Notes under the pieces: generated by a model
What the model was told of the DNA's origin: nothing
The model's input: the letters and a program-made list of their open reading frames with translations, nothing else
Databases searched by the model: none
Translations under genes and position numbers: made by a program
Assembly: GCA_041594355.1 (NCBI GenBank)
Contig: JBFHMM010000001.1
Coordinates: forward strand, 5,872-69,871
Reading direction: 5' to 3'
Source: Paracoccaceae bacterium
Lineage (GTDB): Bacteria; Pseudomonadota; Alphaproteobacteria; Rhodobacterales; Rhodobacteraceae
DNA length: 64,000 nucleotides
Part shown: one piece after another, positions 6,101-40,351 of the stretch
Position numbering within the stretch: the stretch's first letter is position 1
Layout of the letters: the number at the start of each line of letters is the position of its first letter

Positions 6101-6446
6101 GCGCCACCCGGCAGGGGGCGGCGGGATCGAGGAATTTTATCTGCACGGTCTTGCGCCCCGGCAGCCCCCATTGCGGGATCCCGTTGACCGACACCTCGCA
6201 GGGCAGCGGCTCTGCCCCCTCGGGCCGCGGTGCCAGCAGCGGGGCGGCGAATGCGGGGCGGAATTCGCCCTGCGCCTGCGGTTCGGCCGGGCCGGTAGGC
6301 TGCATCCGCACCAAGGCGCCGCCAATTCCCAGCGCTGGTCCCCGCTCTGCCAGCTCCGGAGCCATTTGCGCCTGTACACGGCCATCTGCGATCACGATCC
6401 GGGCAACGCCCTGGGGCAGCGAAACGGTGGGGTGGTCGGGCTTCAT
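3195..6446 (-). CDS. Large bifunctional glycosyltransferase (uncharacterised N-terminal region + GT2 + GT4-like domain)
   Basis: GT2 motifs VSVVIPAHN, VDDGS, LLNND, YFEDTD. GT-B motifs PDRDAGS, FLGNYLHAPN, GAGIKGKV. Start placed at ATG 6446 after a purine-rich RBS. Confidence 0.88.
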   Translation of the reverse strand: MKPDHPTVSLPQGVARIVIADGRVQAQMAPELAERGPALGIGGALVRMQPTGPAEPQAQGEFRPAFAAPLLAPRPEGAEPLPCEVSVNGIPQWGLPGRKTVQIKFLDPAAPCRVALAAPIPLPAQNPQDPPLSFRAWLASHRAAGRLEIRRLRTAGDKTKGDRLAGTYTLLFDDTRIGGQDEADYLAVEQQLPPMEEVTELHMTVQFDSYKGGDSQLSPFLFTADPHVARPAPRSDTLAGRADRPGPSPGEGLQLKGAEPGPGAVWLEAELPAMTAPGQPLMLYLGEDEHLLLDGADLSVTITEDHGHSLQMKATRPGLYRIMLDGKFAFSQQLGPDPVWVRMPREMQTGHYHNLAVLDESGTQRLLSTYVLMPRMLTPLDVLQNESRAPFPGPLMPQAAHRYAALRAHMAAGASPEMQAQVARALEVVEGGHDNVRLAPLAFPPVEAPDVSVVIPAHNKVEVTYLALASLLLAHNHVTFEVILVDDGSTDETARIEEIVSGITVVRNTQAQRFIRACNAGAAKARGTYVALLNNDVEVTNGWLDALVDGFARFDKVGLVGSKLLYPDGRLQDAGGIIWSTGNPWNYGHGENPWDPRFCYARQTDYLCGAALMTTRAIWEEVGGLSQYLEPMYFEDTDLAFKVREAGYTTWFIPSSVVYHYEGLTSGTDTAAGFKRYQEINRPKFKRRWAAAYSRFGAEGVKPDLEKDRGIVGRVLFIDYATPRPDRDAGSHAAVQEIRLVQSLGYKVTFLARNLAHMGSYTEALEKMGVEMIHAPFFLSVDEYLSRHVSDFDAFYITRFYVARDVIDRLRQLAPRTRILFNNADLHFLRELRAGIAANDAAKIAAARETRTLELEVMRKSDVVLSYNEVEHSVIQSHTDGQVRVAKCPWVVDMPDTAPGLENRSGLSFLGNYLHAPNAEGVLWFARQVMPLLETSQPDLQFFVYGSGMGDDIRALKSPRIHPQGYIREISDAYDKHRIFVAPLLSGAGIKGKVLAALAHGVPCVLTPTAAEGVGLRHGHDCMIATTPVEWRDAITRLQGDDALWQAISDNARTYVRQSFSFETGRELMRAAFESIDLYSPVS

Positions 6447-6862: not shown

Positions 6863-8311
6863 ATGGCCGTTGTCTATCCGGTGATTTTGTGTGGTGGCGT
6901 CGGGACCCGGCTCTGGCCGTTGTCGCGCAAAAGCTATCCCAAGCAGTTCGTGCCGCTGATTGGTGACAAGACCCTGTTCCAGGCCTGCGCCGAACGGATG
7001 ACCGGGGCCGGCGACGGGTTTGAATTTGCCGCCCCCGCGATCCTGACCAATTCGGACTTCCGCTTTATCGTCGCCGAACAGCTGCAGGAGGCGGGTATCG
7101 ACCCCGGCCCGGTGATGATCGAACCGCAGGGCCGCAACACCGCCCCCGCGGTATTGGCCGCAGCCCTGCATCTGGCCGCGCAGGATCCCGATGCGGTCTT
7201 GCTGGTGGCGCCCTCGGACCACGTGGTGCCCAACGCCGAGGCGTTCCGCGCGGCGGTGGCCGAGGCGGTGCGGACGGCGCAGGACCGGAGCGACCTGGTC
7301 ACCTTTGGCATCACCCCCGACCATCCGGAAACCGGCTATGGCTATCTGCAACTGTCGGTGCGGCCCGACGGGTCCGGCTCTGCCGTACCGCTGACCCGCT
7401 TTGTCGAGAAGCCCGACCTTGAAACCGCCCAGGCGATGTTGGCCGATGGCAGCTACCTGTGGAATTCGGGGATTTTCCTGTTCACCGCGCGCGACATCGT
7501 CGCGGCCTTTGAGAAATTCGCCCCCGAGCTGATCGCGCCGGTCAGGGAGGCGGTGGAGCAGGCCGAGACCGACCTGGGCTTTCTGCGGCTCGAGCCCGAG
7601 GCCTGGGGCCGCGCCGACGACATCTCGATCGACTATGCGGTGATGGAACGTGCCGACAACCTGTCGGTGGTGCCCTATTCCGACGGCTGGTCGGACCTGG
7701 GCAGCTGGACGGCGGTGCATGAACTCAGCGGCCCCGACGGCGATGGCGTCGCCATGTCCGGCCCGGTCACCGCGATCGACTGCCGCAACGTGCTGCTGCG
7801 CTCGGAATCGCCGGATCAGGAACTGGTCGGCATGGGCGTCGAGGACCTGATCGTGGTGGCGATGTCCGACGCGGTTCTGGTCGCCGACATGAGCCGGGCG
7901 CAGGACGTGAAAAAGGCGGTCACCGCGCTGAAGGCGAAATCGGCCAAGCAGGCCGAGGCGCTGCCGGTCGATTACCGCCCCTGGGGCCATTTCGAAACGC
8001 TGATCCTGGGCGAGCGGTTCCAGGTCAAGCGTATCGTGGTCAAGCCTGGCGCCTCGCTGAGCCTGCAAAGCCACCACCACCGGTCGGAACACTGGATCGT
8101 GGTCGAGGGCACCGCCAAGGTCACCGTCGGCGACGAGGTCAGCCTGATGACCGAGAACCAGTCGGTCTATATCCCGCTGGGGTCGGTGCACCGGCTGGAG
8201 AATCCCGGCAAGATCGAAATGGTGCTGATCGAGGTGCAGACCGGCAGCTATCTGGGCGAAGACGATATCACCCGCTACGAGGATATCTATGCACGCGGCC
8301 AGAAAGACTAG
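6863..8311 (+). CDS. manC: Mannose-1-phosphate guanylyltransferase / mannose-6-phosphate isomerase
   Basis: GGVGTRLWPLSRKSYPKQF, EPQGRNTAPA, FVEKPD, WSDLGSW; C-terminal cupin SLQSHHHRSEHW. Confidence 0.96.
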   Translation: MAVVYPVILCGGVGTRLWPLSRKSYPKQFVPLIGDKTLFQACAERMTGAGDGFEFAAPAILTNSDFRFIVAEQLQEAGIDPGPVMIEPQGRNTAPAVLAAALHLAAQDPDAVLLVAPSDHVVPNAEAFRAAVAEAVRTAQDRSDLVTFGITPDHPETGYGYLQLSVRPDGSGSAVPLTRFVEKPDLETAQAMLADGSYLWNSGIFLFTARDIVAAFEKFAPELIAPVREAVEQAETDLGFLRLEPEAWGRADDISIDYAVMERADNLSVVPYSDGWSDLGSWTAVHELSGPDGDGVAMSGPVTAIDCRNVLLRSESPDQELVGMGVEDLIVVAMSDAVLVADMSRAQDVKKAVTALKAKSAKQAEALPVDYRPWGHFETLILGERFQVKRIVVKPGASLSLQSHHHRSEHWIVVEGTAKVTVGDEVSLMTENQSVYIPLGSVHRLENPGKIEMVLIEVQTGSYLGEDDITRYEDIYARGQKD

Positions 8312-8429: not shown

Positions 8430-10392
8430 GTGCGGGCCTCCCTGGCGTATGGCGGTCCCGGTCCGGCGGCGGCCCTGGCGGCATACGAGCGGCACCATCC
8501 CGCGGCGGCTGATCTGCCCCAGTTACGGGCGGAAGTGGCACGGGCGCGGGGCGCTCCTGTGGCACCCGAAGCGATACCGGAGCCGACCGCCGCCATGGAC
8601 ACCAAGGCCTTGTTGCAGATGGCCCGGCAGGCGGTTGCTGCAAACCGTACCGATCTTTCCGAGACCCTGCTGCGCAGCTTCTCGGGATGCCCGAAAGCGA
8701 CCAGAAACGGTTTGCTCTCGGGCTGGTGCAGGCGCATCTGCAGCAGGGTAACGCCACCGTGGCGAATTTTCGCGCCGCGCTGGACCTGAACCCGGTGATG
8801 GAGGCCGCGCACCTGCGGCTAATCGAAACGCTGAAGGCCCAGGGGGCGGGCAAGGAGGCGTTGCGCGCGGCGGACGCCGGTCTGCAGGCACTTCCGAAGA
8901 GCTGGTTGTTGCGCCACAAGCGGCTGGCGGTGCTGTCCGAACTGGACCCGATCCTGCCGTCGCCGGAGGAGTTCGAGGCGCTGGTTTCGGATGCGCCGGA
9001 GCGGGTTGGCGGCCACCGTCTGAGGTTGAACTGGCTGAAACGGACAGGGCGCTACGCCGAGGCGGCTGCTGCGGTTGCCGATTTCGCGCGGTACTGCCCG
9101 GACGATTTCAATGCGCCGGCCGAACGGGCGTACCTGGAACTGGAGAGTGGTCAGCCGGGGCAGGCCCTGCGTCTGTTCCGCGAAGCGGGCGCGCCGGAAA
9201 GTGACGATGTGGCGCAACGGATTCTGGAAACGGCACCGTGTGCGGAGGTTGCGCAGGTGCGCGTGGCGCTGGTGCAGCTGCTTGGGCAAACCGGGCAGAT
9301 GGCGGCGGCGCGGAACTGTGACGCCCCGTCTCGGTGCTGGACCGGTCTCGGCACCATCTGGCCATCGCCCTGCTGGCGCGGGAGGACTTTGATCTGGAGG
9401 CGGCCGAGGCGGGCTGCACCGCCGCACTGGCCGAGGATCCGGGGCTGGAGGCTGCTTATACGCAGCGCGCCTATACCGGCTGATTGGCCTGCGATCCGGC
9501 GGGCGCCATGCAGGACCGTCAGGCCGCGTTCCGGCTGCGGCATGCGCCGCTGCGGCGCTGGTCCGACATCATCGGGCACCTGTGCAACGAAATGCTGCTG
9601 CAGCCGGAGGTGGTCAGTGTCGCAGCCGCTGCGGATGGGCTGGATGGCCTGGCCGCATTGGTGCGCGCCCACGGGGATCTGACTTGTGTCAGCATGGCGC
9701 TGCTGATCGCGCTGCGCAGGTCCGGACGCCGGGGCCTGCCCGCGGAACTGTCGTCGGAGGCTCGGACCGATCATGTCCCCGCGCGGATATTCCAGTATTG
9801 GGAGAGCGAGATCAGCCCGGACTTGCGGGGGGCGATGGAGGATCTGCAGGCGCGCAACCCTTGGGCGGTCTACCGCCGGTTCGACCGGGCCTCTGCGGGT
9901 GAATACCTGGCCGGGATGGGGCGCCCCGAAGTCGCGCGCGCCTTCCGCCTGTGCCGGCACGCGGCGCAACGCGCGGATCTGTTCCGGCTGGCGGTGATGT
10001 GGGCCGAAGGCGGCATCTACCTGGATGCGGACAATCGCTGCGGCGGCAACCTTGCCGGCCTGCTGCCGCCGGGGGCGCGGTTGGTGCTCTACCAGGAACA
10101 CCTGGGCAGCATCGCCAATAATTTCATCGCGGCCGCGCCGGGATGCGGGCTGCTGGAGCGGACGATGCAGCAGATCGCGGAGGCCCTGATCGCGGGAGCG
10201 GGCGAGTATATCTGGCTGTTGTCGGGACCCGGTGCGCTGACCCGTGCCCTGGCACGACGGATTGCGGAGACACCCGATATCGCTCTGCCGCAAGACTGCC
10301 ACGTGCTGCTCCACTCCACCCTGCTGGGCCGTGTGGCCCCACAATGCCCTTTTGCCTACAAGATCGGCCCGGGCAGCTGGGCGCGTGGGTGA
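8430..10392 (+). pseudogene. Disrupted TPR-repeat + GT32 (OCH1-like DxD) glycosyltransferase
   Basis: One protein-like sequence is split over three frames: frameshifts near 8675 and 9310, in-frame TGA at 9319 and 9481. C-terminal part has IFQYW, QRADLFRL, EGGIYLDAD, NNFIAA, SGPG. Start uncertain; sequencing error not excluded. Confidence 0.7.
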
Positions 10393-10631
10393 TGGTCCGC
10401 GGTAGGATCTCCGGTTGTATGCGACAATACGTCTGCCCAAGAAATTCTCACCCCAGTGGGGCAATATGTCTGGCCGGCAGGACTTTCCGATCATTTGGGT
10501 TGCAGGGCAATCTGCTCTATGGCAGAGCATCCGAGGGTGGCCAGAACATCGAATGATGGAGCGCCGCAGGCACCCAGGTTCGCCGCCCGAGACCTGCGTC
10601 TTTTGACGAAAGCAAGCATAGGATTAAAACC

Positions 10632-10802
10632 ATGAGCGACGATCTCGTATACGCCATTTTCAAGGAAATTGCCGTTTTGGAAGGCAAACGCACCCCGGAC
10701 GGTGAGTGGACGATTGAAGATGCAAACGAGGTGACGCGGTTGCTGACCCGCGCCTTTGCAGCAGTGCGACGGGCATCGACCCCCAGGGATGCCGACGCAT
10801 AA
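10632..10802 (+). CDS. 56-aa microprotein, unrecognised family (copy 1)
   Basis: MSDDLVYAIFKEIAVLEGKRTPDGEWTIEDANEVTRLLTRAFAAVRRASTPRDADA. AGGA RBS upstream. Homologous to 27029..27199 and to the C-terminus of 10889..11755. Confidence 0.85.
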   Translation: MSDDLVYAIFKEIAVLEGKRTPDGEWTIEDANEVTRLLTRAFAAVRRASTPRDADA

Positions 10803-10888
10803 GTCTCGTTCATCCAGATAGCCGAGCCTGGCAGTGTTTTTACATGCCAGGCTCTTTTGCCGTTCAATAACAGGCGCCGGTGGATGCG

Positions 10889-11755
10889 ATGTTGGTCAGT
10901 CATCAATACAAGTTCATTTTTTTGAAACCGGGTAAAACCGCGGGAACTTCGGTCGAAGTTTTCCTGGAGCCATTGTGTGCGGCGCCGGGGCACGTGTCGG
11001 CGCATGTCACGCCAACCATGGAAAGCCGCTTCGGTATTATTGGTGAGCGCGCGTCGGATCCGGATAGGAGCGGATTCTATAATCACATCCTGCCCTTCGA
11101 GTTGAAGCCCAAACTGGGAGACGAGGTTTGGAACAGCTATACGAAAGTTGCTACGGTCCGAAACCCATTTGACCGGGTCGTCTCGGCCTTTCACCACTTC
11201 AAGCTGGCGCTGGAAAAAAACGGAGCCCTGAGCCGAGACGAGGTCATCCGGAAATTCCGGGAGTGGATCGCGGAGTACAACATCAAGTCTCTCCAGATAT
11301 CGTCTTATGCGCAAATCGACGGGGAGCCATGTTTGGACTTCTTGATCAGATACGAAACCCTTGAGGACGACGTCCGCAGCCTTCTTAAGCGCCTCGGTGT
11401 CCTGCGTTCGTCTTTGGGGGATGTGCCCCGGCTCAAGACGGAATTTCGCAAGGGTGGCATTCCGCTGACCGACTACTTCGATGAAGAGACCAGGCAACGT
11501 GTTGTGGATAGCATGGTCAAGGACTTCGAACTTCTGGGTTACAGTGACCAGGTCGAAGATGCTGAGGCGGCCCGCTGCCGCCCTCAGGTGCCCAGTAGAA
11601 CGGATCTGGAACTGTCGGTGTTTACCGAATTGGCCGTTGCGACGGGGAGCAGAACGGTTGGCGGGGTTTGGACATCTGAAGATCTTGGGGCGCTCCAGAC
11701 CTTGCTTACAAGATCATTCCGGATGGTGAGGCGGGAGAAGGACAGAAACTTCTGA
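10889..11755 (+). CDS. Sulfotransferase (family 2-like) with C-terminal microprotein-like domain
   Basis: 5'-PSB FLKPGKTAGTS, 3'-PB VRNPFDRVVSAF, IRYETL, DFELLGY, then an extra ~60-aa tail. Confidence 0.85.
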   Translation: MLVSHQYKFIFLKPGKTAGTSVEVFLEPLCAAPGHVSAHVTPTMESRFGIIGERASDPDRSGFYNHILPFELKPKLGDEVWNSYTKVATVRNPFDRVVSAFHHFKLALEKNGALSRDEVIRKFREWIAEYNIKSLQISSYAQIDGEPCLDFLIRYETLEDDVRSLLKRLGVLRSSLGDVPRLKTEFRKGGIPLTDYFDEETRQRVVDSMVKDFELLGYSDQVEDAEAARCRPQVPSRTDLELSVFTELAVATGSRTVGGVWTSEDLGALQTLLTRSFRMVRREKDRNF

Positions 11756-11823
11756 CCAAGTTCACATCCGGCGGCAACCTGATTGAATGGTCCGGATGTT
11801 CAGCAACATTTTGAGAGGTCAAC

Positions 11824-12621
11824 ATGACAGTTGTTATTGCCCACGGTCAACCGAAGTCCGGCAGTACGTTTCTTTACATGACGGCGATGGAAATTGCGCA
11901 GAACGTGAACAGCGAGGAATTCTATACCTACAAGAACCGTGTGCTTGGTGAAGATTTTCCGACATTCGTAGATGAAATTACGGCGGATTTCGTGCTGGAT
12001 CTGGATAACAGAATCCCGAGGCACCAGATGTTCATCATCAAGACCCATGGCGAGCTGAGCGAGGATCTTGCCGCGATCATCGCCCGGGGCCAGGTCAAGG
12101 CTTTCACCTCGTTTCGGGATCTGAGGGATACGGCGCTGTCGACCCTGGACGTCGCGGTCAAAGACCGAGAAATCGGCGATGCGAGATACTTCGCGAAATA
12201 CAACGAGATCGAGCAATTGCGAAACGCGATCCCCTGGCAGTGGAACGCCGTGTCGCCCTGGGTCCGGTGCCCGGGCGTGTTTGCAAACCCCTACTACATG
12301 ACGGCGCTGTCCCAATCGACTTGTGTCGGGCTTTTGGCGCGTTACCTTGGCGCGGGTTACATGTCCAATACGCTTGCCGCTGAAATGGACGCGAAGCGTA
12401 CCAGCCTGCCTGAGTACAACAAGGGTGTGTTGGACCGGTTTGTCAGCGAGTTGAGCCCCAACGCGATTCAATTCGCCAACGAAACCTGGGCTGCTGAAAT
12501 TGCAGAATACAATGCTCTTCTCGAAACCAAGATGGCGGAACTGGGTCATGCCATGGCCTGCCATTATTACATGCGTATGCGCGATGCAAAGATTACCGAA
12601 CGCCTTGCCGAGGCTGCCTAG
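11824..12621 (+). CDS. Sulfotransferase-fold (P-loop) protein
   Basis: GQPKSGSTFL, IIKTH, FRDLRDTALS. Confidence 0.7.
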   Translation: MTVVIAHGQPKSGSTFLYMTAMEIAQNVNSEEFYTYKNRVLGEDFPTFVDEITADFVLDLDNRIPRHQMFIIKTHGELSEDLAAIIARGQVKAFTSFRDLRDTALSTLDVAVKDREIGDARYFAKYNEIEQLRNAIPWQWNAVSPWVRCPGVFANPYYMTALSQSTCVGLLARYLGAGYMSNTLAAEMDAKRTSLPEYNKGVLDRFVSELSPNAIQFANETWAAEIAEYNALLETKMAELGHAMACHYYMRMRDAKITERLAEAA

Positions 12622-12741
12622 TTTCGCGGCAAGATGACGGGTGACGCGTAAGTTTGGAAGGCTGAAGGCAAGGCCGTCTGCCCCGTGCATCCGATGTGAT
12701 GCTAGATTGTGTGAGGTGCCTTTGCTCTTGGAGTTGCCGAA

Positions 12742-15534
12742 ATGTTTTTGGATTTGAAGCTAGGCGAACAGTTCGAAAATCTAGACATACCAGATTCCGT
12801 ACGGGATCTCGCGGCGAGCGGTGAACCGTTCAGGACGCGCTTTGCAAAGATCGGGGACCTGTCCCTGTCGGTAGGGGAGCAGGAAAAGATCCGCAAGACT
12901 GCCGTCCAATTGACCGATCAGGCGAACTTGAGGCTTGCCGTCGTGCTGTGGGGCATGCTGCATCACCTGACGCCGACGAATGTCAATTATCTGCGCCGCA
13001 TTGTGCAATGCATCGTGGGGGTCTCCAATCCCGGTGTCTTCGCCGACTGCCTGTCCGACGGATGTCTGACCGAGGAGATTTGGAAGGACTGCGGCAACAG
13101 CCTGAACCATGCGATTCGGGTCAGCCTGGAGACGGAGGCGGACGACCGGCACGCGCTGCTCAAGACCCTGCTGCTGAGCAAGGCCGACAACACGCAGATC
13201 GCGCTCAACATGCTCAAACCTCTGCCGTCCAGGATGGTCGATGACTTCATGGAGGTCTGCCTGCGGGACGAGACCGTGCTGGAGGACCGGAAACAGATCC
13301 GGATCCTGTGCCGGCTAACCGAGCGGGCGGGCCATCCGAAGGCGGCGGCCCGCGCTTTCCCGCTCACCATCGGCGACAAGCAGAAGATGACGTTTCACCA
13401 GGCGCTGCTTGGCGGGCGGATCGCCGCGCAGACCGGCGACATCGAGAAGCTGGAGCATTTCAAGGTTCTTTGCCGCGCCGCTGCCCGGGAGACCCCGGAC
13501 CAAGCCCGCGAGTCGGCGATCTATCACCTGCTGTTCTTCGATTCGAGCGATGACAAGGCCATCGATACTGCGGTCGAGGTGATCAGCGACACGCTGGATC
13601 GCAAGGATCTGAACATGTCGCTGTTCTGGATTTACCTGGAAACCATCCTGAAGAAGAAAAAGGGTGGCGTATTGCTGGACAGGATCGCGCTGCGGGTGAG
13701 CGATGCGGCCATGGCCGAAAAGATCGCCATCCTTGCGGATGTCGTCAACGGCAAGGCGACGACGGAACGGGTTCTGAAAAGTTGCGTGGACGGGTTGTGG
13801 GATGATCCCAACACCGCCGGCCGGCTGATCTCGCGGATGGTCGGGCAGATCGACAACGAGGCAGAGTTGATCAGGGCGCTGGATATCCTGGGCAGCCTGG
13901 ATCCCACGTCGATGAAGATTCTCCGTTCCCATAGCCAGCAGTGGCGCGAAGGCGGCAAATACGAGCTGGCTGCGCATGGCTGGCGCGCGCTGGTGCGGGT
14001 CAATCCGCGCGACGACTGGGGCCGGGTCAACGCGATCTACTGTTTCCAGGTGCAGGGCGCGCTGGAGGCCGCGCGGGCGCTGACCGATGACTGGAACCTG
14101 GAGGCCTGCAGCGAGATCGTTCTGATTCACGCGGCGGCGTCGTTTGCCCGGGTAGGGCTTTCGGAGAAGGCGCGGGAGCTGTTCCTGCAGGCCGACGCGG
14201 CCTTGCGCGACGGGGTCGACTCGCTTCCCGAGGTGCACCGCCAGGCCCTTGCGCGGGGGCTGATCCTCTATGGTGAACTGGAGCGCGCCACGGCCTATGT
14301 TCCACCGCGTAAAAATCGGGGTGCACACCGCCCGGATCCCTCGCCGATCGTTCTGCTGGACCCCGGGCACACCGACAGCTCGGGTCACCACGCCAATTAC
14401 AACATCTTCTTTTCCGATTTCGTGCTGGAACATGACGGCGTGCGGCCGGAGATCCTGATCGGGCAGAAAACCCCGGGCACGGCGCTGGAAGGGCACGACG
14501 TGTTCCCTGCGGTGGTCTTCGAGCCCTATGTCTACAATGACTACAGTCTGGGCGCCGCCGAAATCGCCGGATTGAACGCGTCCTTCCGGCAGGAACTGAC
14601 CACGCTGTTCCAGGATCATGTGCCGGACACGCTGATCATGCATTCGATGCGGGCGATCATGCTCAGGGGTTTCGTGCAATGGCTCGAAGATCTAGGCGAC
14701 CGGCGTCCGCGCAGGCTGGCAATCGGCCTGATCGAGGCGGATCACCTGGCCGATGCGGAGTTGTCCGAAGTCTATTCCCAAGCTCTCAGCGACCCGCTGT
14801 CCAACCTCGGGCAGATGCATGTTGAGACGTTGATCCTGTTTGCCGAAACCACCTTTGCGGTGGATTGGCTGCAACAGCACGCGCCCGGGATCACGGTACA
14901 CAAGTTCCCCTATCTGGCGGCGGGCCGCGCGGCGCAGGCGGCCACCGGGTTCGATACGCTGCGTGCCGCGACCCCGGTCTTTGGCATCCTGGGGGCCACC
15001 CGCAAGGAGCGCGGGTTCAACCCGATCTTCCAGGCGATCCTGCAGGAAGGCGCCGCCGCGCCGCATTGGCATTTCCAGGTCGACGACCGGGCGGTGGGGC
15101 GGTTCGGCGACGATACCGCCGACCTGCTCGGGCAGATCGAGACCCGGATCGAGGCCGGGGAGCTTGACCAGGTCGACATCCTCAAGGGCTTCCTGTCGGA
15201 CGAGGAATATTACGGCGCCTTCGGGCGGCTGAACTGCCTGGTGTTGCCCTATTCGGGGCGCTATGCGGTGTCTGGATCCGGGGTGCTTTACGAGGCGGTC
15301 TACAGCCGCAAGTATCTGATCATTTCCGAAGGTTCGACGCTGGCGATCGAACTGGCGGAAATCGGCTATCCACACCGCACTGTCGACGTCGACGATCCCG
15401 AGACGATCCGGCGGGCGGTGGCAGAGACCGCGGCGGCCTGGCCTGCCATCGTGGATGAGCTGGAGACCTATTTCGCGGGCGCGCCGAAACTGCCGCTGGA
15501 AGGGTTCCGCGGGCTTTATACCGGTGCCGGGTAA
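12742..15534 (+). CDS. Helical/TPR-like N-terminus + GT-B (GT4-like) glycosyltransferase
   Basis: C-terminal LLDPGHTDSSGHHANY, GATRKERGF, LPYSGRYAVSGSGVLYEA. TPR-like helices around residues 390-520. Confidence 0.7.
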   Translation: MFLDLKLGEQFENLDIPDSVRDLAASGEPFRTRFAKIGDLSLSVGEQEKIRKTAVQLTDQANLRLAVVLWGMLHHLTPTNVNYLRRIVQCIVGVSNPGVFADCLSDGCLTEEIWKDCGNSLNHAIRVSLETEADDRHALLKTLLLSKADNTQIALNMLKPLPSRMVDDFMEVCLRDETVLEDRKQIRILCRLTERAGHPKAAARAFPLTIGDKQKMTFHQALLGGRIAAQTGDIEKLEHFKVLCRAAARETPDQARESAIYHLLFFDSSDDKAIDTAVEVISDTLDRKDLNMSLFWIYLETILKKKKGGVLLDRIALRVSDAAMAEKIAILADVVNGKATTERVLKSCVDGLWDDPNTAGRLISRMVGQIDNEAELIRALDILGSLDPTSMKILRSHSQQWREGGKYELAAHGWRALVRVNPRDDWGRVNAIYCFQVQGALEAARALTDDWNLEACSEIVLIHAAASFARVGLSEKARELFLQADAALRDGVDSLPEVHRQALARGLILYGELERATAYVPPRKNRGAHRPDPSPIVLLDPGHTDSSGHHANYNIFFSDFVLEHDGVRPEILIGQKTPGTALEGHDVFPAVVFEPYVYNDYSLGAAEIAGLNASFRQELTTLFQDHVPDTLIMHSMRAIMLRGFVQWLEDLGDRRPRRLAIGLIEADHLADAELSEVYSQALSDPLSNLGQMHVETLILFAETTFAVDWLQQHAPGITVHKFPYLAAGRAAQAATGFDTLRAATPVFGILGATRKERGFNPIFQAILQEGAAAPHWHFQVDDRAVGRFGDDTADLLGQIETRIEAGELDQVDILKGFLSDEEYYGAFGRLNCLVLPYSGRYAVSGSGVLYEAVYSRKYLIISEGSTLAIELAEIGYPHRTVDVDDPETIRRAVAETAAAWPAIVDELETYFAGAPKLPLEGFRGLYTGAG

Positions 15535-25625: not shown

Positions 25626-26918
25626 ATGGGAAAACGCCTTTTGATCATCGACCCGGCCTTCTCGGAAGGCGAAGGCCACCATCTGGCGGCCAATGTGCTG
25701 CTGACCCGCACCGCGCATGAGGCCGGGTTCGACAGCGTGTGCATCCTGTGCCGCAACAGCTGCCCGCTGCCCACCATCGCCGATGGTCTGGGCGAAACCG
25801 TACCCACCTTTGACAGCACACCTTATGCCGCCTTCCGGGTCGGCGACCTGCCCCGGCTGGCGGCGCTGAACCACAAGGCGCAGGAGGATTTCGACGTCAT
25901 CCCCGCGGATATGGTTCGCGATGGCGATGAACTGCTGGTGCATACGGTCAACGAGGTCCAGTTCACGGCGTTGACTCGCTGGTTGGCGCAGATGCTGGAA
26001 ACCCGTGACGTCCGGGTGCGGCTGGCGCTGATGTTCCCTGTCGGGCTGGAGTTTTCCGAGGACGGCGTCACCGGGGTGCGCGATCCGGCGGCGGCGATGA
26101 TCTTCCGCCACGGCGCGGCGCGGCTGGCCCCCTTCGGCGACCGGGTACGCTGGCTGGGCATCGGCCGCTCGATCGCGCGGGAATTCAACCTGCTGACCGG
26201 CAACGCGGTGGGATATGGCCCGGCGCTGGTCCCCGGCATTGGTGCCCCGCTGGCAGCGAAACCCGACAGCGCGGTGCCCAATATCGTGCTCTATATGGGC
26301 GATGCGAAATTCGACAAGGGCTTTCACCACCTGCCGGCGATCATCACGCGGCTGCGCAACAGCCCCCGCGACTTTCGCGCCACGGTGCAGGTATCGGGCG
26401 GGGTGATCGGACATTTCACAGAGATGCGCCAGGCGCTCGAGAGCGCCGCCCAGGGCGATCCCCGTTTCATCATCCACAATGGCCGGCTGAGCGATGCCGA
26501 TTACGAACGGGCCTGGCAACAGGGCCATATCGCGCTTCTGGGCTATGATCCGGGGGTCTACAAATACAAATCCTCGGGCCTGTGCTGGGAGGCGATGAAC
26601 TACGCGGTGCCGGCGGTGGTGCTGAAGGACACGTTCCACCACCGTGAAGTCACCGGATACGGGTTCGACCCCATCGTGGTGAACGATTACTGGCCCGAAC
26701 AGCTGTTTGCCGGACTGGAACGGGGTCTGGCGGCGCTGCCGCAGATGGCGCCAGCCTGGCAGGCGGCGCGCGCCGGGTTTGTCGATCAGAACCAGCCCGC
26801 CCAATATTTCGCCGAGGATCTGCCCGGCCTGCCGGGCGGCGGTCAGGCCGCCGATCTGCGCGCCCATATTCAAGGTTGGCAGCGGCGCTGTTTCGACGCG
26901 TTTTTTGGTGGGGGGTAA
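25626..26918 (+). CDS. GT-B (GT4-like) glycosyltransferase
   Basis: IIDPAFSEGEGHH, GDAKFDKGF, YKYKSSGLCWEA. Paralogous to the C-terminus of 12742..15534. Confidence 0.7.
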   Translation: MGKRLLIIDPAFSEGEGHHLAANVLLTRTAHEAGFDSVCILCRNSCPLPTIADGLGETVPTFDSTPYAAFRVGDLPRLAALNHKAQEDFDVIPADMVRDGDELLVHTVNEVQFTALTRWLAQMLETRDVRVRLALMFPVGLEFSEDGVTGVRDPAAAMIFRHGAARLAPFGDRVRWLGIGRSIAREFNLLTGNAVGYGPALVPGIGAPLAAKPDSAVPNIVLYMGDAKFDKGFHHLPAIITRLRNSPRDFRATVQVSGGVIGHFTEMRQALESAAQGDPRFIIHNGRLSDADYERAWQQGHIALLGYDPGVYKYKSSGLCWEAMNYAVPAVVLKDTFHHREVTGYGFDPIVVNDYWPEQLFAGLERGLAALPQMAPAWQAARAGFVDQNQPAQYFAEDLPGLPGGGQAADLRAHIQGWQRRCFDAFFGGG

Positions 26919-27028: not shown

Positions 27029-27199
27029 ATGTCTGACGAATTGGTACTGGGAATTTTCAAGGAACTCGCCGTGATGGAAGGCAGCCGCAAGCCCGACGGA
27101 AGCTGGGCTGTCAATGATCAGGAGGCGTTCAAACGGCTATTGCGCCGGGCCGGCCGGCTGGCCCAGTCGGCAAAGGGCGGTGACGAAACCGAGGCCTGA
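27029..27199 (+). CDS. 56-aa microprotein, unrecognised family (copy 2)
   Basis: MSDELVLGIFKELAVMEGSRKPDGSWAVNDQEAFKRLLRRAGRLAQSAKGGDETEA. AAGGGA RBS. 26/56 identical to copy 1 by ungapped hand alignment. Confidence 0.85.
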   Translation: MSDELVLGIFKELAVMEGSRKPDGSWAVNDQEAFKRLLRRAGRLAQSAKGGDETEA

Positions 27200-27311: not shown

Positions 27312-28358
27312 TTGAAGTCCGTTTTTCTTCACATCGGTCCGCACAAGAGCGGCACCTCGACAATGCAGAAATTCCTCGCCGAACGGCAGGATGATCTGGC
27401 GGCGCGGTTCTCGCTCAGGTTCTGCCGCACCGGGCGCAGCTGGCCCCGGCAAAACATCAACCTGGCCTGGCAGTTCCAGAACCCCAGGTTCTTTGAGCCC
27501 GACAGGGGGTCCTGGGCCGATGTCGCGGCCGAGATCGCCGCCGGGCCCGAAACGACGGCGGTGCTGTTCAGCGAATTGTTCTCGCGGTTCGGCGAGGATT
27601 CGATCGCCCAGGTTGCCGAGGCGTTGCGTGGTTTCGACACCCGGATCCTGTTTTACGGCCGCGCCCCGGCGGACTGGCTGGAAAGCTCCTATGCCCAGTC
27701 GTTCCGCAACCTGACCCCGCGCGACAACGCGGGGTGCTATCTCGATTTTGTTCGTGATCCGGGCGCGCGGCGACCGGTTGCCCGGATCCTGCCGGTGTTG
27801 GACAAATGGGCCTCCGCTTTTGGCGAGGATGCGATCATCCTGCGGTCATTCGAGGCCGCCCGCACCACCCCCGACGGCGGCTTGATGGCCGATTTCGCCG
27901 CCCAGCTGGGGCTGCGGGGGATCGATTTCAGCGATCTGCCGCAGCAGCGCAACCCGCGCATCGGGATCAAGACCATGGGCCTGTTCCATAACTTTTCGCG
28001 GCTGCTCTTGAAGACAGGCGTGCCGCTGGACCGCAAACCCCGGGACGCCCTGCGCAATGCGATCAACCGATATGGCCGCAAGCAGGGCTGGAACGAGGAA
28101 AGCGCCCGGTTCAACACCACCGAGACCCGGGCCATCATCGCCGAGCGTTACGAACCGCAGGTCCGCGCGGCGTTTCGCAAATATGCCGGGCAGGAGATCA
28201 CCCTTGCCGACGGCCCGCTGCAGCCCGACAGCATCGCACGGCAAATGCCTGCGGATCAGGTCGGCAGGGAAGACATCGACGGCTGCTTCCGCTTCATCGA
28301 GGAAATCTGCACGCCGGAAATGGTTGCCGCGTTCCAGCCCCTGCGCGACGCACTATGA
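27312..28358 (+). CDS. Sulfotransferase-fold protein (LHIG-K-SG/TG family)
   Basis: FLHIGPHKSGTSTMQ, FSE, YGRAPADWLESSYAQ. Confidence 0.78.
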   Translation: MKSVFLHIGPHKSGTSTMQKFLAERQDDLAARFSLRFCRTGRSWPRQNINLAWQFQNPRFFEPDRGSWADVAAEIAAGPETTAVLFSELFSRFGEDSIAQVAEALRGFDTRILFYGRAPADWLESSYAQSFRNLTPRDNAGCYLDFVRDPGARRPVARILPVLDKWASAFGEDAIILRSFEAARTTPDGGLMADFAAQLGLRGIDFSDLPQQRNPRIGIKTMGLFHNFSRLLLKTGVPLDRKPRDALRNAINRYGRKQGWNEESARFNTTETRAIIAERYEPQVRAAFRKYAGQEITLADGPLQPDSIARQMPADQVGREDIDGCFRFIEEICTPEMVAAFQPLRDAL

Positions 28359-28368
28359 CGCGCTCCGC

Positions 28369-29331
28369 TCAGGCCGCCCCAAGTTCGGCGGCCATCTCGG
28401 CTGCCTGGGCGCGGATCTCGGGCGTCAGCAGCGCCTCGTAATCGACATCGGCAAAGGGTGGTTCACCGTCCAGGCGCAGACCGACGCCATAGGTTTCCGC
28501 CACATAGGCCAGATCGCGGTCCATCTCCGCCTCGATCAGGGCGCGGGCGGCCAGCGGCAGGCAGAACCGCTCGCCGCCGAACTGCGCGGCAAAGGCCTTG
28601 ACCCGGCTGTTCTTCAGCCCCAGCCCCGGCCAGGTCCGGTGCATGTAATCGGTCACCACCGTCGCAAGCATCGAAAGGCTGGTGTTGGCCTGCACCTGCT
28701 TGAAGTCGGGATCCTCGGCGATTTCGGGTTTTCCGGTGGTCAGCTCCAGGAAATCGCGGACGATGTCGCCCCCGTTCAGGGCGGGGCGGGAACTGTCACG
28801 GACGATGACATTGTCGCGGCCGAACACCTTTTCATACCGCGGCAATACCTTGTGATACTGCACAAAGCGGGGCGCTTCGCAGCAGTCGGCCAGGCTGCGC
28901 TTGCCGTTCTTGATCTGGGTCTGGGCAAAGCTGGGGGCAAAGGACAGCGGATGGCGACAATAGATCACCAGTTTCACTTGCCGGCAGCCGCCCAGCAGAT
29001 CCTCGCGCAGGCGCACCAGCTCATCCGGTTTCAGCGAAGACACCGATTCCGAGGAGAAGGCGATGTTGCCGCCGTCCCCGGGATGCTCGGCGAAATAGGT
29101 GTTCAGCGCCCCCTCGATGCGCGGCGCGGTCATCAGGCTGCGCGGGGCATCCACATAGGGCCGCCCGACAAAGGCGATGTGGTTGCCCCCCGTCCGGTCC
29201 AGCGCCTCGGGGTAGGTCAACCCGCCCTGTTCCGCGACCAGGTCGCGGTTGACCGCCAGCGTGTTCTGGATCGAGGTCGATCCGGTCTTGGCGTGACCGC
29301 AATGAAGAAAACAGGTGTCATACATGGGCAT
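28369..29331 (-). CDS. Sulfotransferase-fold protein (LHIG-K-SG/TG family)
   Basis: LHCGHAKTGSTSIQ, SSE, YCRHPLSF, GDIVRDF, NTSLS. Confidence 0.78.
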   Translation of the reverse strand: MPMYDTCFLHCGHAKTGSTSIQNTLAVNRDLVAEQGGLTYPEALDRTGGNHIAFVGRPYVDAPRSLMTAPRIEGALNTYFAEHPGDGGNIAFSSESVSSLKPDELVRLREDLLGGCRQVKLVIYCRHPLSFAPSFAQTQIKNGKRSLADCCEAPRFVQYHKVLPRYEKVFGRDNVIVRDSSRPALNGGDIVRDFLELTTGKPEIAEDPDFKQVQANTSLSMLATVVTDYMHRTWPGLGLKNSRVKAFAAQFGGERFCLPLAARALIEAEMDRDLAYVAETYGVGLRLDGEPPFADVDYEALLTPEIRAQAAEMAAELGAA

Positions 29332-29364: not shown

Positions 29365-30372
29365 TTAAGCGGAAGGTCCGGAATCTCTGCGCTTTTTCTT
29401 AGCCTGGATGGCAACGTTGGCCAGATCGTCGAACAACAGGGCAAGGGAGCGGATCGTTTCGGGCCGGAAATAGGTTTCGGGGGCCGGAGGCGGGATGCTG
29501 GTGTCGATATCGGCGAACCGGAGACCATGAGCGGTTTCCAGGTAGTCGCGCACGGTTTTGGTCTTTTCCACAATCCGGGCGAGGGTTTCGCCGGGAAAGA
29601 CGTACTTCGGCCCCTCGACCTGCGGCAGCTTGCGCTGCAGCAGCCGGTTGCGTGAAAACTTGGGTGCAAATTCACTCAGCGCATCAGCCAGCAGCAGCCC
29701 GGCGCCGGACAGGGAATCGTTCTGCCGGATAGAGGGGATCTGCTCTACCAGGTCCCCCAGCCCGGCCCGGGATAGGAAATCGCCGACAATATCGGGCTTG
29801 CCGGGCAGATCGCCGGTATAGGCGCAAACGCTGACCGCATCATGACCAAAAACCCCGCTCCAGCGGTCAATCAGGCTCTTGTAGTGGCTGGTGGGCGGAT
29901 CGGCGAGGCAGTCGGCCAGCCGGGCGGCGCCGTTCTTGACCTGCTCCTGAATCATGCTCAGCGCCTGCTGCACCGGATCACGGACATAGACCAGAACCCG
30001 CAGGGCGGCGAAGCGTGCCTCGAGCCAGCGTTTCAGCGCCGCGATCTCATCGGCGTCCAGCAGTACCGAATGTTCGGCGCTCAGGATCACCAGCCGGGGG
30101 GCCGATGCGGCAATCTCGGCCTCCAGCTCGGCCAGCGTCGCGGTATTGTGTGCCACCGTGGCAGCGCCGCTGCGTCCGGCCATGCGATTGTAATCGAAAC
30201 TGTCGGGATCGGTCATGAAGGCCGAGACCAGAAACCGGTGATTGCGCTCCAGCGCCGGATACAGAACCCCCGCCTCGGCGAGAATGCCGCTGCCCTGTTT
30301 CAGGCTGACCTGGATCGAGGTCGACCCCGTCTTGGGCACACCGATATGCAACAGGCAGTCAGGTTTCATCAC
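29365..30372 (-). CDS. Sulfotransferase-fold protein (LHIG-K-SG/TG family)
   Basis: LHIGVPKTGSTSIQ, SAE, YVRDP, DIVGDF, NDSLS. Confidence 0.8.
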   Translation of the reverse strand: MMKPDCLLHIGVPKTGSTSIQVSLKQGSGILAEAGVLYPALERNHRFLVSAFMTDPDSFDYNRMAGRSGAATVAHNTATLAELEAEIAASAPRLVILSAEHSVLLDADEIAALKRWLEARFAALRVLVYVRDPVQQALSMIQEQVKNGAARLADCLADPPTSHYKSLIDRWSGVFGHDAVSVCAYTGDLPGKPDIVGDFLSRAGLGDLVEQIPSIRQNDSLSGAGLLLADALSEFAPKFSRNRLLQRKLPQVEGPKYVFPGETLARIVEKTKTVRDYLETAHGLRFADIDTSIPPPAPETYFRPETIRSLALLFDDLANVAIQAKKKRRDSGPSA

Positions 30373-32166: not shown

Positions 32167-32930
32167 GCCCCCGGCGGCGCGGCCCCGGTGCCGCCCTCTG
32201 ACAGCGCGCGTTCCAGGCTGACGTTGCGCAAATGGTCCAGTTCAGCGGCATCGAACACCGGCGGTATCTCGACCGGCGGGCCGCTGGTCTCGTTGCGGCG
32301 GGTGCGCTTGTCCTTGACCAGCCGGGCCCGGGACGCGTCCAGCCCGAGAAAACCGAGCACCCGCCCGGTGGCCTCCGGCCCCGTCACCAACTCCTCGAAA
32401 TCCAGATCCAAGACCCGGCGCACCCCGTGGCCGCGCAGCATCGCATGGATCCCCGCGACCATGGCCATCTGCACCCGGGCATCGGCGATGACCTCCTCGG
32501 GGCTGACACGGGAAAACCGCTTTGGCCGCCAGAGCTCCTTTTCCACCCGCAGCAGGCATTCCGACCGGAACCGCCGCACCAGGTCGCGGCGCCACAGGAC
32601 CACCACCGCCGGATCGTCCGCCAACACCCGGTTCAGCAAATAGGCGTTCTGTTCCAGGTAGAAATGCGAATAGAGCGCCTTGAACCCCTGGCACGGAACA
32701 TCCGGCTGCGCCAGCATCAGCCGCAGGAACCCGTCGGGATCGTCCTGGCGCATCTGGGGGGTCAGACCGGGGATCTGGCTCAGCTTGCCGACCTTGTTGG
32801 ACAGGCCCAGAATCCGGTTCTTGCCGAGGATCTCGCCGTGGCACAGCACCCCGGTCTGGACATTGATCGCCAGCCGCAGCGCGGTGCTGCCCGACCGGGC
32901 AGGCGAGACGATCAGGAAATGACGTGTCAT
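32142..32930 (-). CDS. Sulfotransferase (Stf0-like)
   Basis: SPARSGSTAL, CHGEI, GFKAL, LWRRDL...S, FEELV. Confidence 0.75.
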   Translation of the reverse strand: MTRHFLIVSPARSGSTALRLAINVQTGVLCHGEILGKNRILGLSNKVGKLSQIPGLTPQMRQDDPDGFLRLMLAQPDVPCQGFKALYSHFYLEQNAYLLNRVLADDPAVVVLWRRDLVRRFRSECLLRVEKELWRPKRFSRVSPEEVIADARVQMAMVAGIHAMLRGHGVRRVLDLDFEELVTGPEATGRVLGFLGLDASRARLVKDKRTRRNETSGPPVEIPPVFDAAELDHLRNVSLERALSEGGTGAAPPGAQPGQSSP

Positions 32931-33916
32931 TGCAACGGCTCCTTGCGTGGGGCGGGGGCCAGGCTGAGCCAGGGCGCGGCGCGCGCCATGACCCTGGCCA
33001 GACGTGGCGGCAGGGCCTGACCGGCGGCGGCCCCGATCCTCTCCAGATCGGCCTGCAGCCTGTCCATCTCCGGCAGCACCGGGTTGCCGGCCCAGAATTT
33101 CAGCGCCGGCAGCGGCCCCAGCAGACGGACCAGCGACGCATTATAGGCGCTGCGCGCGCGCAGCCGCGCGGCGTCTTCGTCGGCGATGTAAAAGGCACGG
33201 CGGAAGGCAGCATGGGTGCCGGCCAGATCGCGCAGGGCCGCGTAATCCAGCGCCGGCAGCTCCAGCTTGTTGGCGGCCAGCTTGTAGACCAGCAGGTTGC
33301 CCCCGATCGAAGGGTTCATGTCGCCCTGCGGGATCGCGCCGGGGGCAATGTCCAGCCGGGTGCAGACATCGGCGATGATGTCGCCGTCCTTCAGCCGCGA
33401 CCGGTCGTACCAGCACAGCTCCAGATCGCCAATCGCGCGCCAGCGCGCGGCAAAGGGGGCCAGGTCGCCCAGGCCCTGCACGAATTTGCGGAACGGCACG
33501 AACCGGGGCTGGTTCTGGATCATCTGCCGATACCCCGAAACCGCGTAATCCAGATGTTCGCGCAGATAGCACAGCACCCGGATGCGGCCCACATCAAGCG
33601 CATCGGCGAAATCCCGCAGCCGGGTCAGGTCGGTCAGGTTCTGGAAGGCCTCGCTGGACAGCAGGATCCGGGTGTGATGCGGCTCTAATTCGCCACGAAT
33701 GGCGGCGGCGATATCCGCCAGCCCCGCCCCGTCGGACTGGCCGGAATGGCACTGCGCGGCAATGGCGTGATGCGCGATGCGGTTGGGGCAGCCCGCCCGC
33801 GGATACAATACCCCCTGCCCGCTCAGGTGGTCGCGCGCGCCACCCAGGAAATGCTGCAACGAACTGGTGCCGGATTTATGACGCCCGATGTGCAGGATCA
33901 GTTCGGGGGCGCTCAT
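32927..33916 (-). CDS. Sulfotransferase-fold protein (LHIG-K-SG/TG family)
   Basis: LHIGRHKSGTSSLQ, LYP, LSSEAF, YLREH, GDIIAD, NPSIG. Confidence 0.78.
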   Translation of the reverse strand: MSAPELILHIGRHKSGTSSLQHFLGGARDHLSGQGVLYPRAGCPNRIAHHAIAAQCHSGQSDGAGLADIAAAIRGELEPHHTRILLSSEAFQNLTDLTRLRDFADALDVGRIRVLCYLREHLDYAVSGYRQMIQNQPRFVPFRKFVQGLGDLAPFAARWRAIGDLELCWYDRSRLKDGDIIADVCTRLDIAPGAIPQGDMNPSIGGNLLVYKLAANKLELPALDYAALRDLAGTHAAFRRAFYIADEDAARLRARSAYNASLVRLLGPLPALKFWAGNPVLPEMDRLQADLERIGAAAGQALPPRLARVMARAAPWLSLAPAPRKEPLQ

Positions 33917-39697: not shown

Positions 39698-40351
39698 TCA
39701 ACTGTTCCACTTGATACCAGTGACTGCAAGCGTTGGCGCAAAGGCCTCGTAGATGCGTTGCCGCTGCGCCGTCGTCACCTGGTCCTTGCGGATCAGCGGG
39801 GTTTTGGAAAACTCGGACTTGGCCCGTGTGTGCAGCTGGAACTCCGCGATGCCGCGCCTGTCCAGGATCCGGGGCAGCGCCCATTTCAGCCGGTCATAGC
39901 GCAGCACCCGGTTGACCATCAGCACCCGGCGTCCGTTTTCCATCCGGCTGTACTTGTAGTGGTCGACGGGAAAATTCCCGGCCTCGCAATAGCTCTCCCA
40001 GCTGGCGTCATAGGCACCATCGGGATTGTGCAGCGCGGAATTGCGCAGCATGTGAAAATGGCTGATGCATTTCTCGACCGGTTCGCGTTCGACGCAGAAC
40101 CGGAACATCGCGCCAAAGCGCTCTGCGCCCAGCAGATCCGCGATCTCCTGCGCGGGCATATGGTTGTAATAGATCGTCTTGCCGCCCGCGTCGGCAAAGT
40201 TGCGTGCCCGGTGCCCCGGTACCGGCGGCAGGATCGGGGTGACGATGGCCTCCTCCTCGAGACGCCCCGACAGGTCCACCTCGATGCTGGTGCCCGCGGT
40301 CTTGGTCGTCTTGATGAAGATGAAATTATGCCTGAAGGACACAATCGCCAT
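39698..40351 (-). CDS. Sulfotransferase (family 2-like)
   Basis: IVSFRHNFIFIKTTKTAGTSIEV, YNH, EREPVEKCISHF, LRYDRL. Paralog of 10889..11755. Confidence 0.82.
   Translation of the reverse strand: MAIVSFRHNFIFIKTTKTAGTSIEVDLSGRLEEEAIVTPILPPVPGHRARNFADAGGKTIYYNHMPAQEIADLLGAERFGAMFRFCVEREPVEKCISHFHMLRNSALHNPDGAYDASWESYCEAGNFPVDHYKYSRMENGRRVLMVNRVLRYDRLKWALPRILDRRGIAEFQLHTRAKSEFSKTPLIRKDQVTTAQRQRIYEAFAPTLAVTGIKWNS

Follow-up and report, generated by a model that had tools for sequence, protein, structure and literature searches.

A small protein encoded beside sulfotransferase-type genes, and fused to one lineage of them, is probably a helper of bacterial glycan sulfation

The window, by which we mean the whole stretch of 64,000 nucleotides that was analysed, is a large surface-polysaccharide locus of a bacterium of the Paracoccaceae, with genes for YjbH/YjbF, ManC, a GDP-mannose dehydratase, an epimerase, several glycosyltransferases, two Sulfotransfer_3 proteins and GSCFA. 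The source assembly is a MAG of 3.7 Mb, 82% complete. We find that an open reading frame on the forward strand at 10632..10802, with an ATG start and a Shine-Dalgarno-like AGGA (10620..10623, +, read from the sequence) 8 nt upstream of it, encodes a microprotein of 56 aa with a predicted folded core (residues 1-49) and a variable tail (residues 50-56). We refer to it as copy 1. A tblastn search of the window with its product returned two further copies. Copy 2 (27029..27199, +) is a free open reading frame of 56 aa and a paralog of copy 1, aligning over 27029..27196 without gaps at 26/56 identical residues (E 2.7e-13), and copy 3 (11603..11734, +; 22/44 identical, E 3.7e-10) is fused to the C-terminus of a Sulfotransfer_2 enzyme. 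After these two the best remaining match in the window has an E-value of 0.33, and three copies are all that the whole MAG contains. The sequence-only reading of this DNA had reported both the 56-aa frame with its ribosome-binding site and the ungapped second copy, and on these points our analysis agrees with it.

The ortholog of copy 1 in Seohaeicola saemankumensis, 92% identical, is the 54-aa LCL97_21715, which carries the NCBI annotation "hypothetical protein". The microprotein had been described as unannotated; this is correct in that the family is uncharacterised, but the gene itself was already on record in that species. Copy 1 furthermore has four metagenomic protein orthologs with 67-77% identity, and its locus is unchanged in independent metagenomes (contigs from four DNA runs), while the orthologs of copy 2 are 96-98% identical. 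Selection on the protein, argued earlier from the many synonymous codon differences between the two free copies, is borne out by the numbers: pS is 0.65 versus a pN of 0.36 between copies 1 and 2, and dN/dS (Nei-Gojobori) against the S. saemankumensis orthologs is 0.13 for copy 1 and 0.07 for copy 2, with a range of 0.05-0.16 among the ortholog pairs whose dS is unsaturated. Between orders the synonymous sites are saturated and protein identity is still 65-80%. The 56-aa open reading frame is a real gene under purifying selection, because it has orthologs with low dN/dS, a family that is recovered by profile search, conserved residues and a fold predicted by AlphaFold2, the last three of which are described below.

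An exhaustive profile (HMM) search of 1.84 billion representative proteins gave 39 matches at E<1e-3, 18 of them at E<1e-10, and about 36 credible microprotein clusters, nearly all 54-94 aa in length and with the domain at the N-terminus. Three large repeat proteins (P0008, P0032 and P0037, of which P0032 is acidic and built of DGEYSGEWSVED repeats) were discarded as artefacts of composition, as only the hairpin segment matched, many times over. Five residues are invariant in an alignment of 43 microprotein sequences (E12, A14, R20, G24 and W26) and four more are near-invariant (F10, G18, L38 and A41). This set, which holds across the whole family, is narrower than the conserved pattern that had been drawn from the three window copies. 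AlphaFold2 models copy 1 as a helix (residues 3-16), a beta-hairpin (17-30) and a second helix (31-49), with a mean pLDDT of 91.4 and a disordered tail, in agreement with the helix-hairpin-helix arrangement that had been suggested from the consensus. On the strength of this model we propose that the microprotein would fold on its own as a domain of some 47 residues, with a conserved G-x-R-x-x-D-G-x-W hairpin held between the helices, and carry a short variable tail.

The sequence-only reading had recognised no family, and this stands after the searches. The microprotein matched no Pfam family at E<=0.01 and no NCBIfam model at E<=1, its matches to PHROGs were partial (E 0.03-0.6) and to families of unknown function, and a profile search of PDB sequences returned designed helical repeats only. 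Structure comparison was equally unspecific: the best Foldseek match of the model in the PDB has an E-value of 0.94, the best hit of a wide VIA-align search has a Z of 5.7, which is generic for helical hairpins, and an Atlas shape search gave TM scores of 0.59-0.67 to unrelated families that are likewise generic helical hairpins. The family is also rare. It was found in one of 60 relatives, the genome from the same genus, and there was no credible match in 400 evenly sampled Alphaproteobacteria genomes; the lone weak match among these, a partial one (G342, E 8.4e-4), was not counted in the family.

Copy 3 is the C-terminal part of the protein encoded at 10889..11755 (+), in which a linker joins the enzyme to the microprotein domain. 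The open reading frame opens with GTG at 10880, and the ATG at 10889 matches the database protein P0009. By its sequence the protein belongs to the Sulfotransfer_2 family (PF03567), which matches residues 4-222 with an E-value of 4.5e-13 and 50.3 bits against a cut-off of 22, and it carries both PAPS-binding motifs: the 5'-phosphosulfate loop reads KPGKTAGTS and lies near the N-terminus, and the 3'-phosphate motif (R-x-P-x-D-x-x-x-S) reads RNPFDRVVS and is found at residue 94. P0009 is 288 aa long and is matched by the microprotein profile at residues 239-288 (E 2.4e-18), so that, compared with ordinary Sulfotransfer_2 proteins, the window enzyme has about 50 extra C-terminal residues that are homologous to the free microproteins. 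A paralog elsewhere in the window (39698..40351) aligns to residues 5-220 of the fused enzyme only and lacks this tail, which indicates that the Sulfotransfer_2 catalytic domain is complete without it. The C-terminal fusion occurs in two Sulfotransfer_2 clusters that form one lineage, and in P0011 the junction keeps ...RRRKR-M-SEDLIY, which suggests a fusion with a microprotein gene that formerly lay downstream. A search for longer, fused forms found none, which is weak evidence, and the two Sulfotransfer_2 clusters remain the only fusions known.

Downstream of the fused gene lies a gene for a 265-aa sulfotransferase-like protein (11824..12621, +), which in the copy-1 clade is conserved downstream of the microprotein, with synteny in L007, L008, L010-L013 and L016. 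It has no match in Pfam or among PDB sequences; 8 homologs share PKSGST, KTH and FRDxRDxxxS as invariant motifs, and its nearest Atlas clusters are Sulfotransfer_1/3 (PF00685/PF13469; score 0.98). The third member of this microprotein, sulfotransferase and large-protein triad is a 930-aa protein of no known family (12742..15534, +), homologs of which, 924-1058 aa in length, follow the sulfotransferase-like gene in L007, L008 and L010-L013. It has no Pfam or NCBIfam match, and its C-terminal half has no relatives among PDB sequences. Copy 2 is preceded by a gene for a 430-aa protein (25626..26918, +; no Pfam, NCBIfam or PDB sequence match) whose sequence shows a weak similarity to the 930-aa protein in the C-terminal half of the latter, residues 5-158 of the former aligning to residues 536-689 of the latter with a BLASTP E-value of 3e-5. 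The domain that the two have in common begins ...DPxxxxxxGHH and has no family or PDB match. As each free microprotein copy is accompanied by one such protein, the module may include it as a third part.

Copy 2 is followed by a gene for a 348-aa protein (27312..28358, +) that we assign to the sulfotransferase fold from Foldseek comparison, motifs (HIGPHKSGTS and RAPADWLES) and the Atlas clusters, which are automatically named "sulfotransferase family"; it has no Pfam match. Its AlphaFold2 model is mediocre, with a pLDDT of only 65, and its top Foldseek matches are sulfotransferases at TM 0.36-0.49, namely an NDST1 domain (E 6.8e-5) followed by 3rnl, 3-OST-3 and TPST2. Three paralogs are found in the window, at 28369..29331, 29365..30372 and 32927..33916. 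The 348-aa and 265-aa proteins were rejected as paralogs of each other (BLASTP E 2.7). The window thus holds two sulfotransferase-like families that have clear PAPS-loop motifs and no Pfam or NCBIfam model, one with HIGxxK[ST]G[ST]S and four window paralogs, the other with HGQPKSGSTF and represented by the 265-aa protein.

The link to sulfotransferases that had been proposed from the two free copies and the fused one was followed up by a check of gene neighbours in and outside the window, and it is well supported: a sulfotransferase-type gene lies near the microprotein gene in 15 of 16 informative contexts, spread over several orders and at least five sulfotransferase subfamilies, in addition to which one Sulfotransfer_2 lineage carries the domain as a fusion. 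The distance is at most three genes in 14 contexts and 3.4 kb, across IS fragments, in L029/L030. In this count the two window copies and L010-L013 were each taken as one lineage and the P0024 contigs were left out; the 16 contexts are not all independent, being shared among related genomes. An alignment-based search for related loci, which used a narrower alignment, gave 7 loci. In L007 (a metagenome contig), L008 (S. saemankumensis), L010-L012 (Rhodospirillales) and L013 (Kiloniellales) the microprotein gene is followed by one for a sulfotransferase-like protein of about 265 aa and then by one for a protein of 924-1058 aa. L015/L016 have the gene order of the window, with a free 60-aa member, a 315-aa Sulfotransfer_2 protein with the fused domain, a 264-aa protein and a large protein. 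In L017 the microprotein gene comes after ManC and has a Sulfotransfer_4 gene (E 1.2e-8) downstream of it. Sulfotransfer_2 genes flank it on both sides in L018/L019, one of them adjacent and convergent, and in L028 Sulfotransfer_2-type genes are two genes off on either side. L020 has a Sulfotransfer_2 gene and a gene for a 220-aa sulfotransferase-like protein upstream, L021 has a 219-aa homolog of the latter together with a Sulfotransfer_3-like gene (266 aa), and L023 has an adjacent, convergent Sulfotransfer_3/1 gene. A 279-aa sulfotransferase-like gene lies two genes upstream in L009 (Sulfitobacter), and the gene found beyond the IS debris of L029/L030 is a 319-aa homolog of the 348-aa family. 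In L010 (4015-7356), and likewise in L011 and L013, the microprotein gene is also preceded by genes for a B12-binding radical SAM protein (541 aa) and for a conserved 535-aa protein of no known family, which hints at further glycan tailoring chemistry in these Rhodospirillales and Kiloniellales clusters.

In L022 the microprotein gene and a convergent Sulfotransfer_2 gene make up an island of two, surrounded by housekeeping genes (engA, recA, dksA and genes of an ABC transporter). As this pair lies outside any polysaccharide cluster, the link between microprotein and sulfotransferase is independent of such a cluster. L026/L027 have the microprotein gene at the same syntenic site and no sulfotransferase beside it, with four Sulfotransfer_2 genes elsewhere in the genome, and L022 (6001-6960) and L026 (6001-6571) make up a natural presence/absence pair for the Sulfotransfer_2 gene beside the microprotein. 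Sulfotransfer_2 genes were found in 12 of 150 other sampled Alphaproteobacteria (25 matches) and in none of 14 control genomes. These observations bear on the idea that the microprotein, although a real gene, is functionally unrelated to sulfation and merely travels with variable polysaccharide islands. Many of the loci are indeed mosaic with IS elements nearby, and a cassette in the window has itself been exchanged by recombination. However, the pair in L022 is not part of any such island, the domain has been fused to a sulfotransferase, and the adjacency recurs across orders despite the low background of sulfotransferase genes, and we therefore find a mere passenger scarcely credible.

The pair in L022 also brings to mind a different kind of system. 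RaxX and RaxST of Xanthomonas are a sulfated peptide and its tyrosyl sulfotransferase, of which RaxX is secreted, is sulfated on tyrosine, is largely unstructured as a precursor, and has both a leader and an exporter of its own. In both cases a small open reading frame of about 60 aa adjoins a sulfotransferase gene, and the microprotein could by analogy itself be sulfated or glycosylated, its N-terminal part acting as a recognition leader and its variable tail as the modified core. A conserved core followed by a variable C-terminal tail, rich in Ala, Ser, Lys, Glu, Asp and Pro, would fit such a substrate or carrier. Against it, none of the conserved columns is Ser, Thr or Tyr. Tyr7 is found in only 18 of 43 sequences, P0043 lacks Tyr altogether, and no hydroxyl-rich column corresponding to the acidic-Tyr sulfation site of RaxX/PSY-type peptides is seen in the 43 sequences. 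Neither a signal peptide nor a double-glycine leader was found, there being no conserved GG motif in the family, and no peptidase-type exporter gene is adjacent in the loci that were read, nor is a peptidase-type ABC exporter linked among the Pfam-labelled neighbours. The core is predicted to fold with confidence, unlike typical leader peptides, the fused copy of the window has almost no tail, and the neighbours belong to carbohydrate-type sulfotransferase families. We consider it highly improbable that the microprotein is the substrate.

The surroundings of copy 1 differ between close relatives. Window and S. saemankumensis share about 96% DNA identity as far as position 10783 and then from 12878 onwards; in the stretch between, S. 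saemankumensis lacks the fused Sulfotransfer_2 gene, and its 265-aa gene is no more than 68% identical. The G+C content of 10784-12877 is low, 0.54-0.56 versus 0.66. Low G+C and replacement between nearly identical flanks indicate that this segment is an exchanged cassette, the left breakpoint of which falls in the last codons of the copy 1 gene, and it looks like a recombined sulfation-specificity cassette. As the fused Sulfotransfer_2 gene is part of what was swapped, the conserved partners of the copy-1 clade are the genes for the 265-aa and about 930-aa proteins. This qualifies the earlier statement that both free copies sit directly upstream of a co-oriented sulfotransferase-fold gene, which is true for both within the window, but the enzyme gene adjacent to copy 1 is absent in the sister species. 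A second difference lies further upstream, where S. saemankumensis has about 347 extra bases at window position 9205-9215. In the window a TPR open reading frame (8687..9682) and a DXD glycosyltransferase open reading frame (9484..10392) overlap in different frames, and the difference may be a deletion, a frameshift or a MAG assembly error within one gene that is longer in the relative.

Directly 3' of copy 1 a terminator- or stabiliser-like stem-loop (10824-10854) is followed by UUUU (10824..10858, +). The predicted RNA fold of 10803-10879 has an energy of -27.7 kcal/mol (z -3.8, with 0/200 shuffles as good), and hairpins of other sequence are found at the same position after the stop codon in L008 (about 8173-8199) and L007 (about 6189-6216), that is, in three Rhodobacterales loci in all. 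A scan for consensus promoters and terminators gave nothing relevant and did not list the stem-loop at 10824..10858. We suggest that the hairpin may be a terminator, an attenuator or an mRNA stabiliser that sets the ratio of microprotein to enzyme. A small stand-alone gene, often the first of its block and followed by a strong stem-loop in Rhodobacterales, is also what one might expect of a regulator, and the microprotein could then be a nucleic-acid-binding protein, an anti-regulator or the like that controls the expression or activity of sulfation genes; that it keeps its chromosomal site whether or not a sulfotransferase gene adjoins it (L022 and L026) would agree with this. On the other hand, the core is about neutral, with a mean net charge of -0.3, the order of helix, hairpin and helix matches no known DNA-binding family, and a covalent fusion to the C-terminus of an enzyme would be unusual for a transcription factor, all of which makes a regulator very unlikely. 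More generally, the neutral core, the lack of a conserved hydroxyl residue and the near absence of Cys argue against a DNA-binding, acceptor or sulfur-relay role.

Taken as a whole, the microprotein, which many marine bacteria have next to or fused to sugar-sulfating enzymes, is probably a helper of bacterial glycan sulfation. The sequence-only reading had inferred a docking, oligomerisation or regulatory subunit of glycan sulfation, which our results support in part. For its mode of action we favor a trans-acting accessory subunit of sulfotransferases, a proposal that is made by analogy and to which we give slightly less than an even chance. The microprotein would work together with cytoplasmic carbohydrate sulfotransferases, binding the enzyme in trans where it is free-standing and acting in cis where a flexible linker tethers it to the C-terminus of a Sulfotransfer_2 protein, and its role would be to stabilise the enzyme, activate it or hold it in position while a sulfated surface polysaccharide is being made. 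Both the binding to the enzyme and the effect on its activity are what we infer here. A complex prediction for copy 1 and the 265-aa protein gave a score of 0.00 and, having no controls, speaks neither for nor against binding.

The analogy is with the MbtH-like proteins (PF03621), which are partners of the adenylation domains of NRPSs, are about 55-70 aa long with invariant Trp, are encoded beside the enzyme they serve in biosynthetic clusters, are occasionally fused to it and are not needed by every enzyme. Small size, an invariant Trp, a position beside one enzyme family, occasional fusion and a requirement that is not universal are all shared with the microprotein. The likeness is one of logic only, as there is no relationship in sequence or fold and the partners here are sulfotransferases and not adenylation domains. 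The MbtH signature moreover has three conserved Trp, whereas the microprotein family has one invariant Trp (W26) and no match to PF03621. The protein family itself has not been described before; biosynthetic enzymes with a small partner protein or a fused accessory domain are a familiar theme. That the microprotein is not generally required is indicated by the window itself, where about twelve sulfotransferase-fold genes are found with three microprotein copies, and by the fact that most genomes with sulfotransferases lack the family. In several loci (L018/L019, L022 and L023) the sulfotransferase gene is convergent, so that microprotein and enzyme are not co-transcribed there.

The limited requirement and the convergent genes count against a subunit, and so do three further observations. 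The microprotein gene persists without an adjacent sulfotransferase in L026/L027, fusion is limited to a single lineage, and the partners span at least five sulfotransferase subfamilies. Such a range of partners does not sit easily with a single conserved surface for docking, and what the partners share may instead be a ligand. These subfamilies have their donor chemistry in common, not their surface features, and the conserved Arg/Trp hairpin could accordingly bind a molecule that every sulfation reaction shares, such as the sulfated glycan product, the acceptor, or PAPS/PAP, and not the enzyme, as a miniature carbohydrate- or nucleotide-binding module that is either free or enzyme-tethered. 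The invariant R20, G24 and W26 cluster in the hairpin, sites that bind sugars, sulfate or nucleotides typically combine Arg with Trp, and the flexible linker of the fusions would suit an appended binding module. About 47 residues in two helices are, however, very small for a specific ligand pocket, and neither Foldseek, VIA-align nor the Atlas shape search revealed a structural likeness to known binding modules. We hold a ligand-binding adaptor of this kind to be unlikely, and continue to prefer the accessory subunit.

The sulfated polysaccharides of bacteria are of interest to ecology and biotechnology, but the sulfotransferases behind them are difficult to express and to assign. If the microprotein is a partner of these enzymes, it could explain failed reconstitutions, mark sulfation loci in genomes and define a new protein family. 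A cultured strain, Seohaeicola saemankumensis DP4N-5, has both free copies, so that the hypothesis is open to direct test. A bolder proposal, which we find rather doubtful, is that the family constitutes a dedicated protein cofactor of bacterial carbohydrate sulfotransferases that some of them need for activity or substrate channelling, a class without a described counterpart. If this were true, exchange of the small domain along with sulfotransferase cassettes would help to diversify the sulfation patterns of the surface glycans of marine bacteria.
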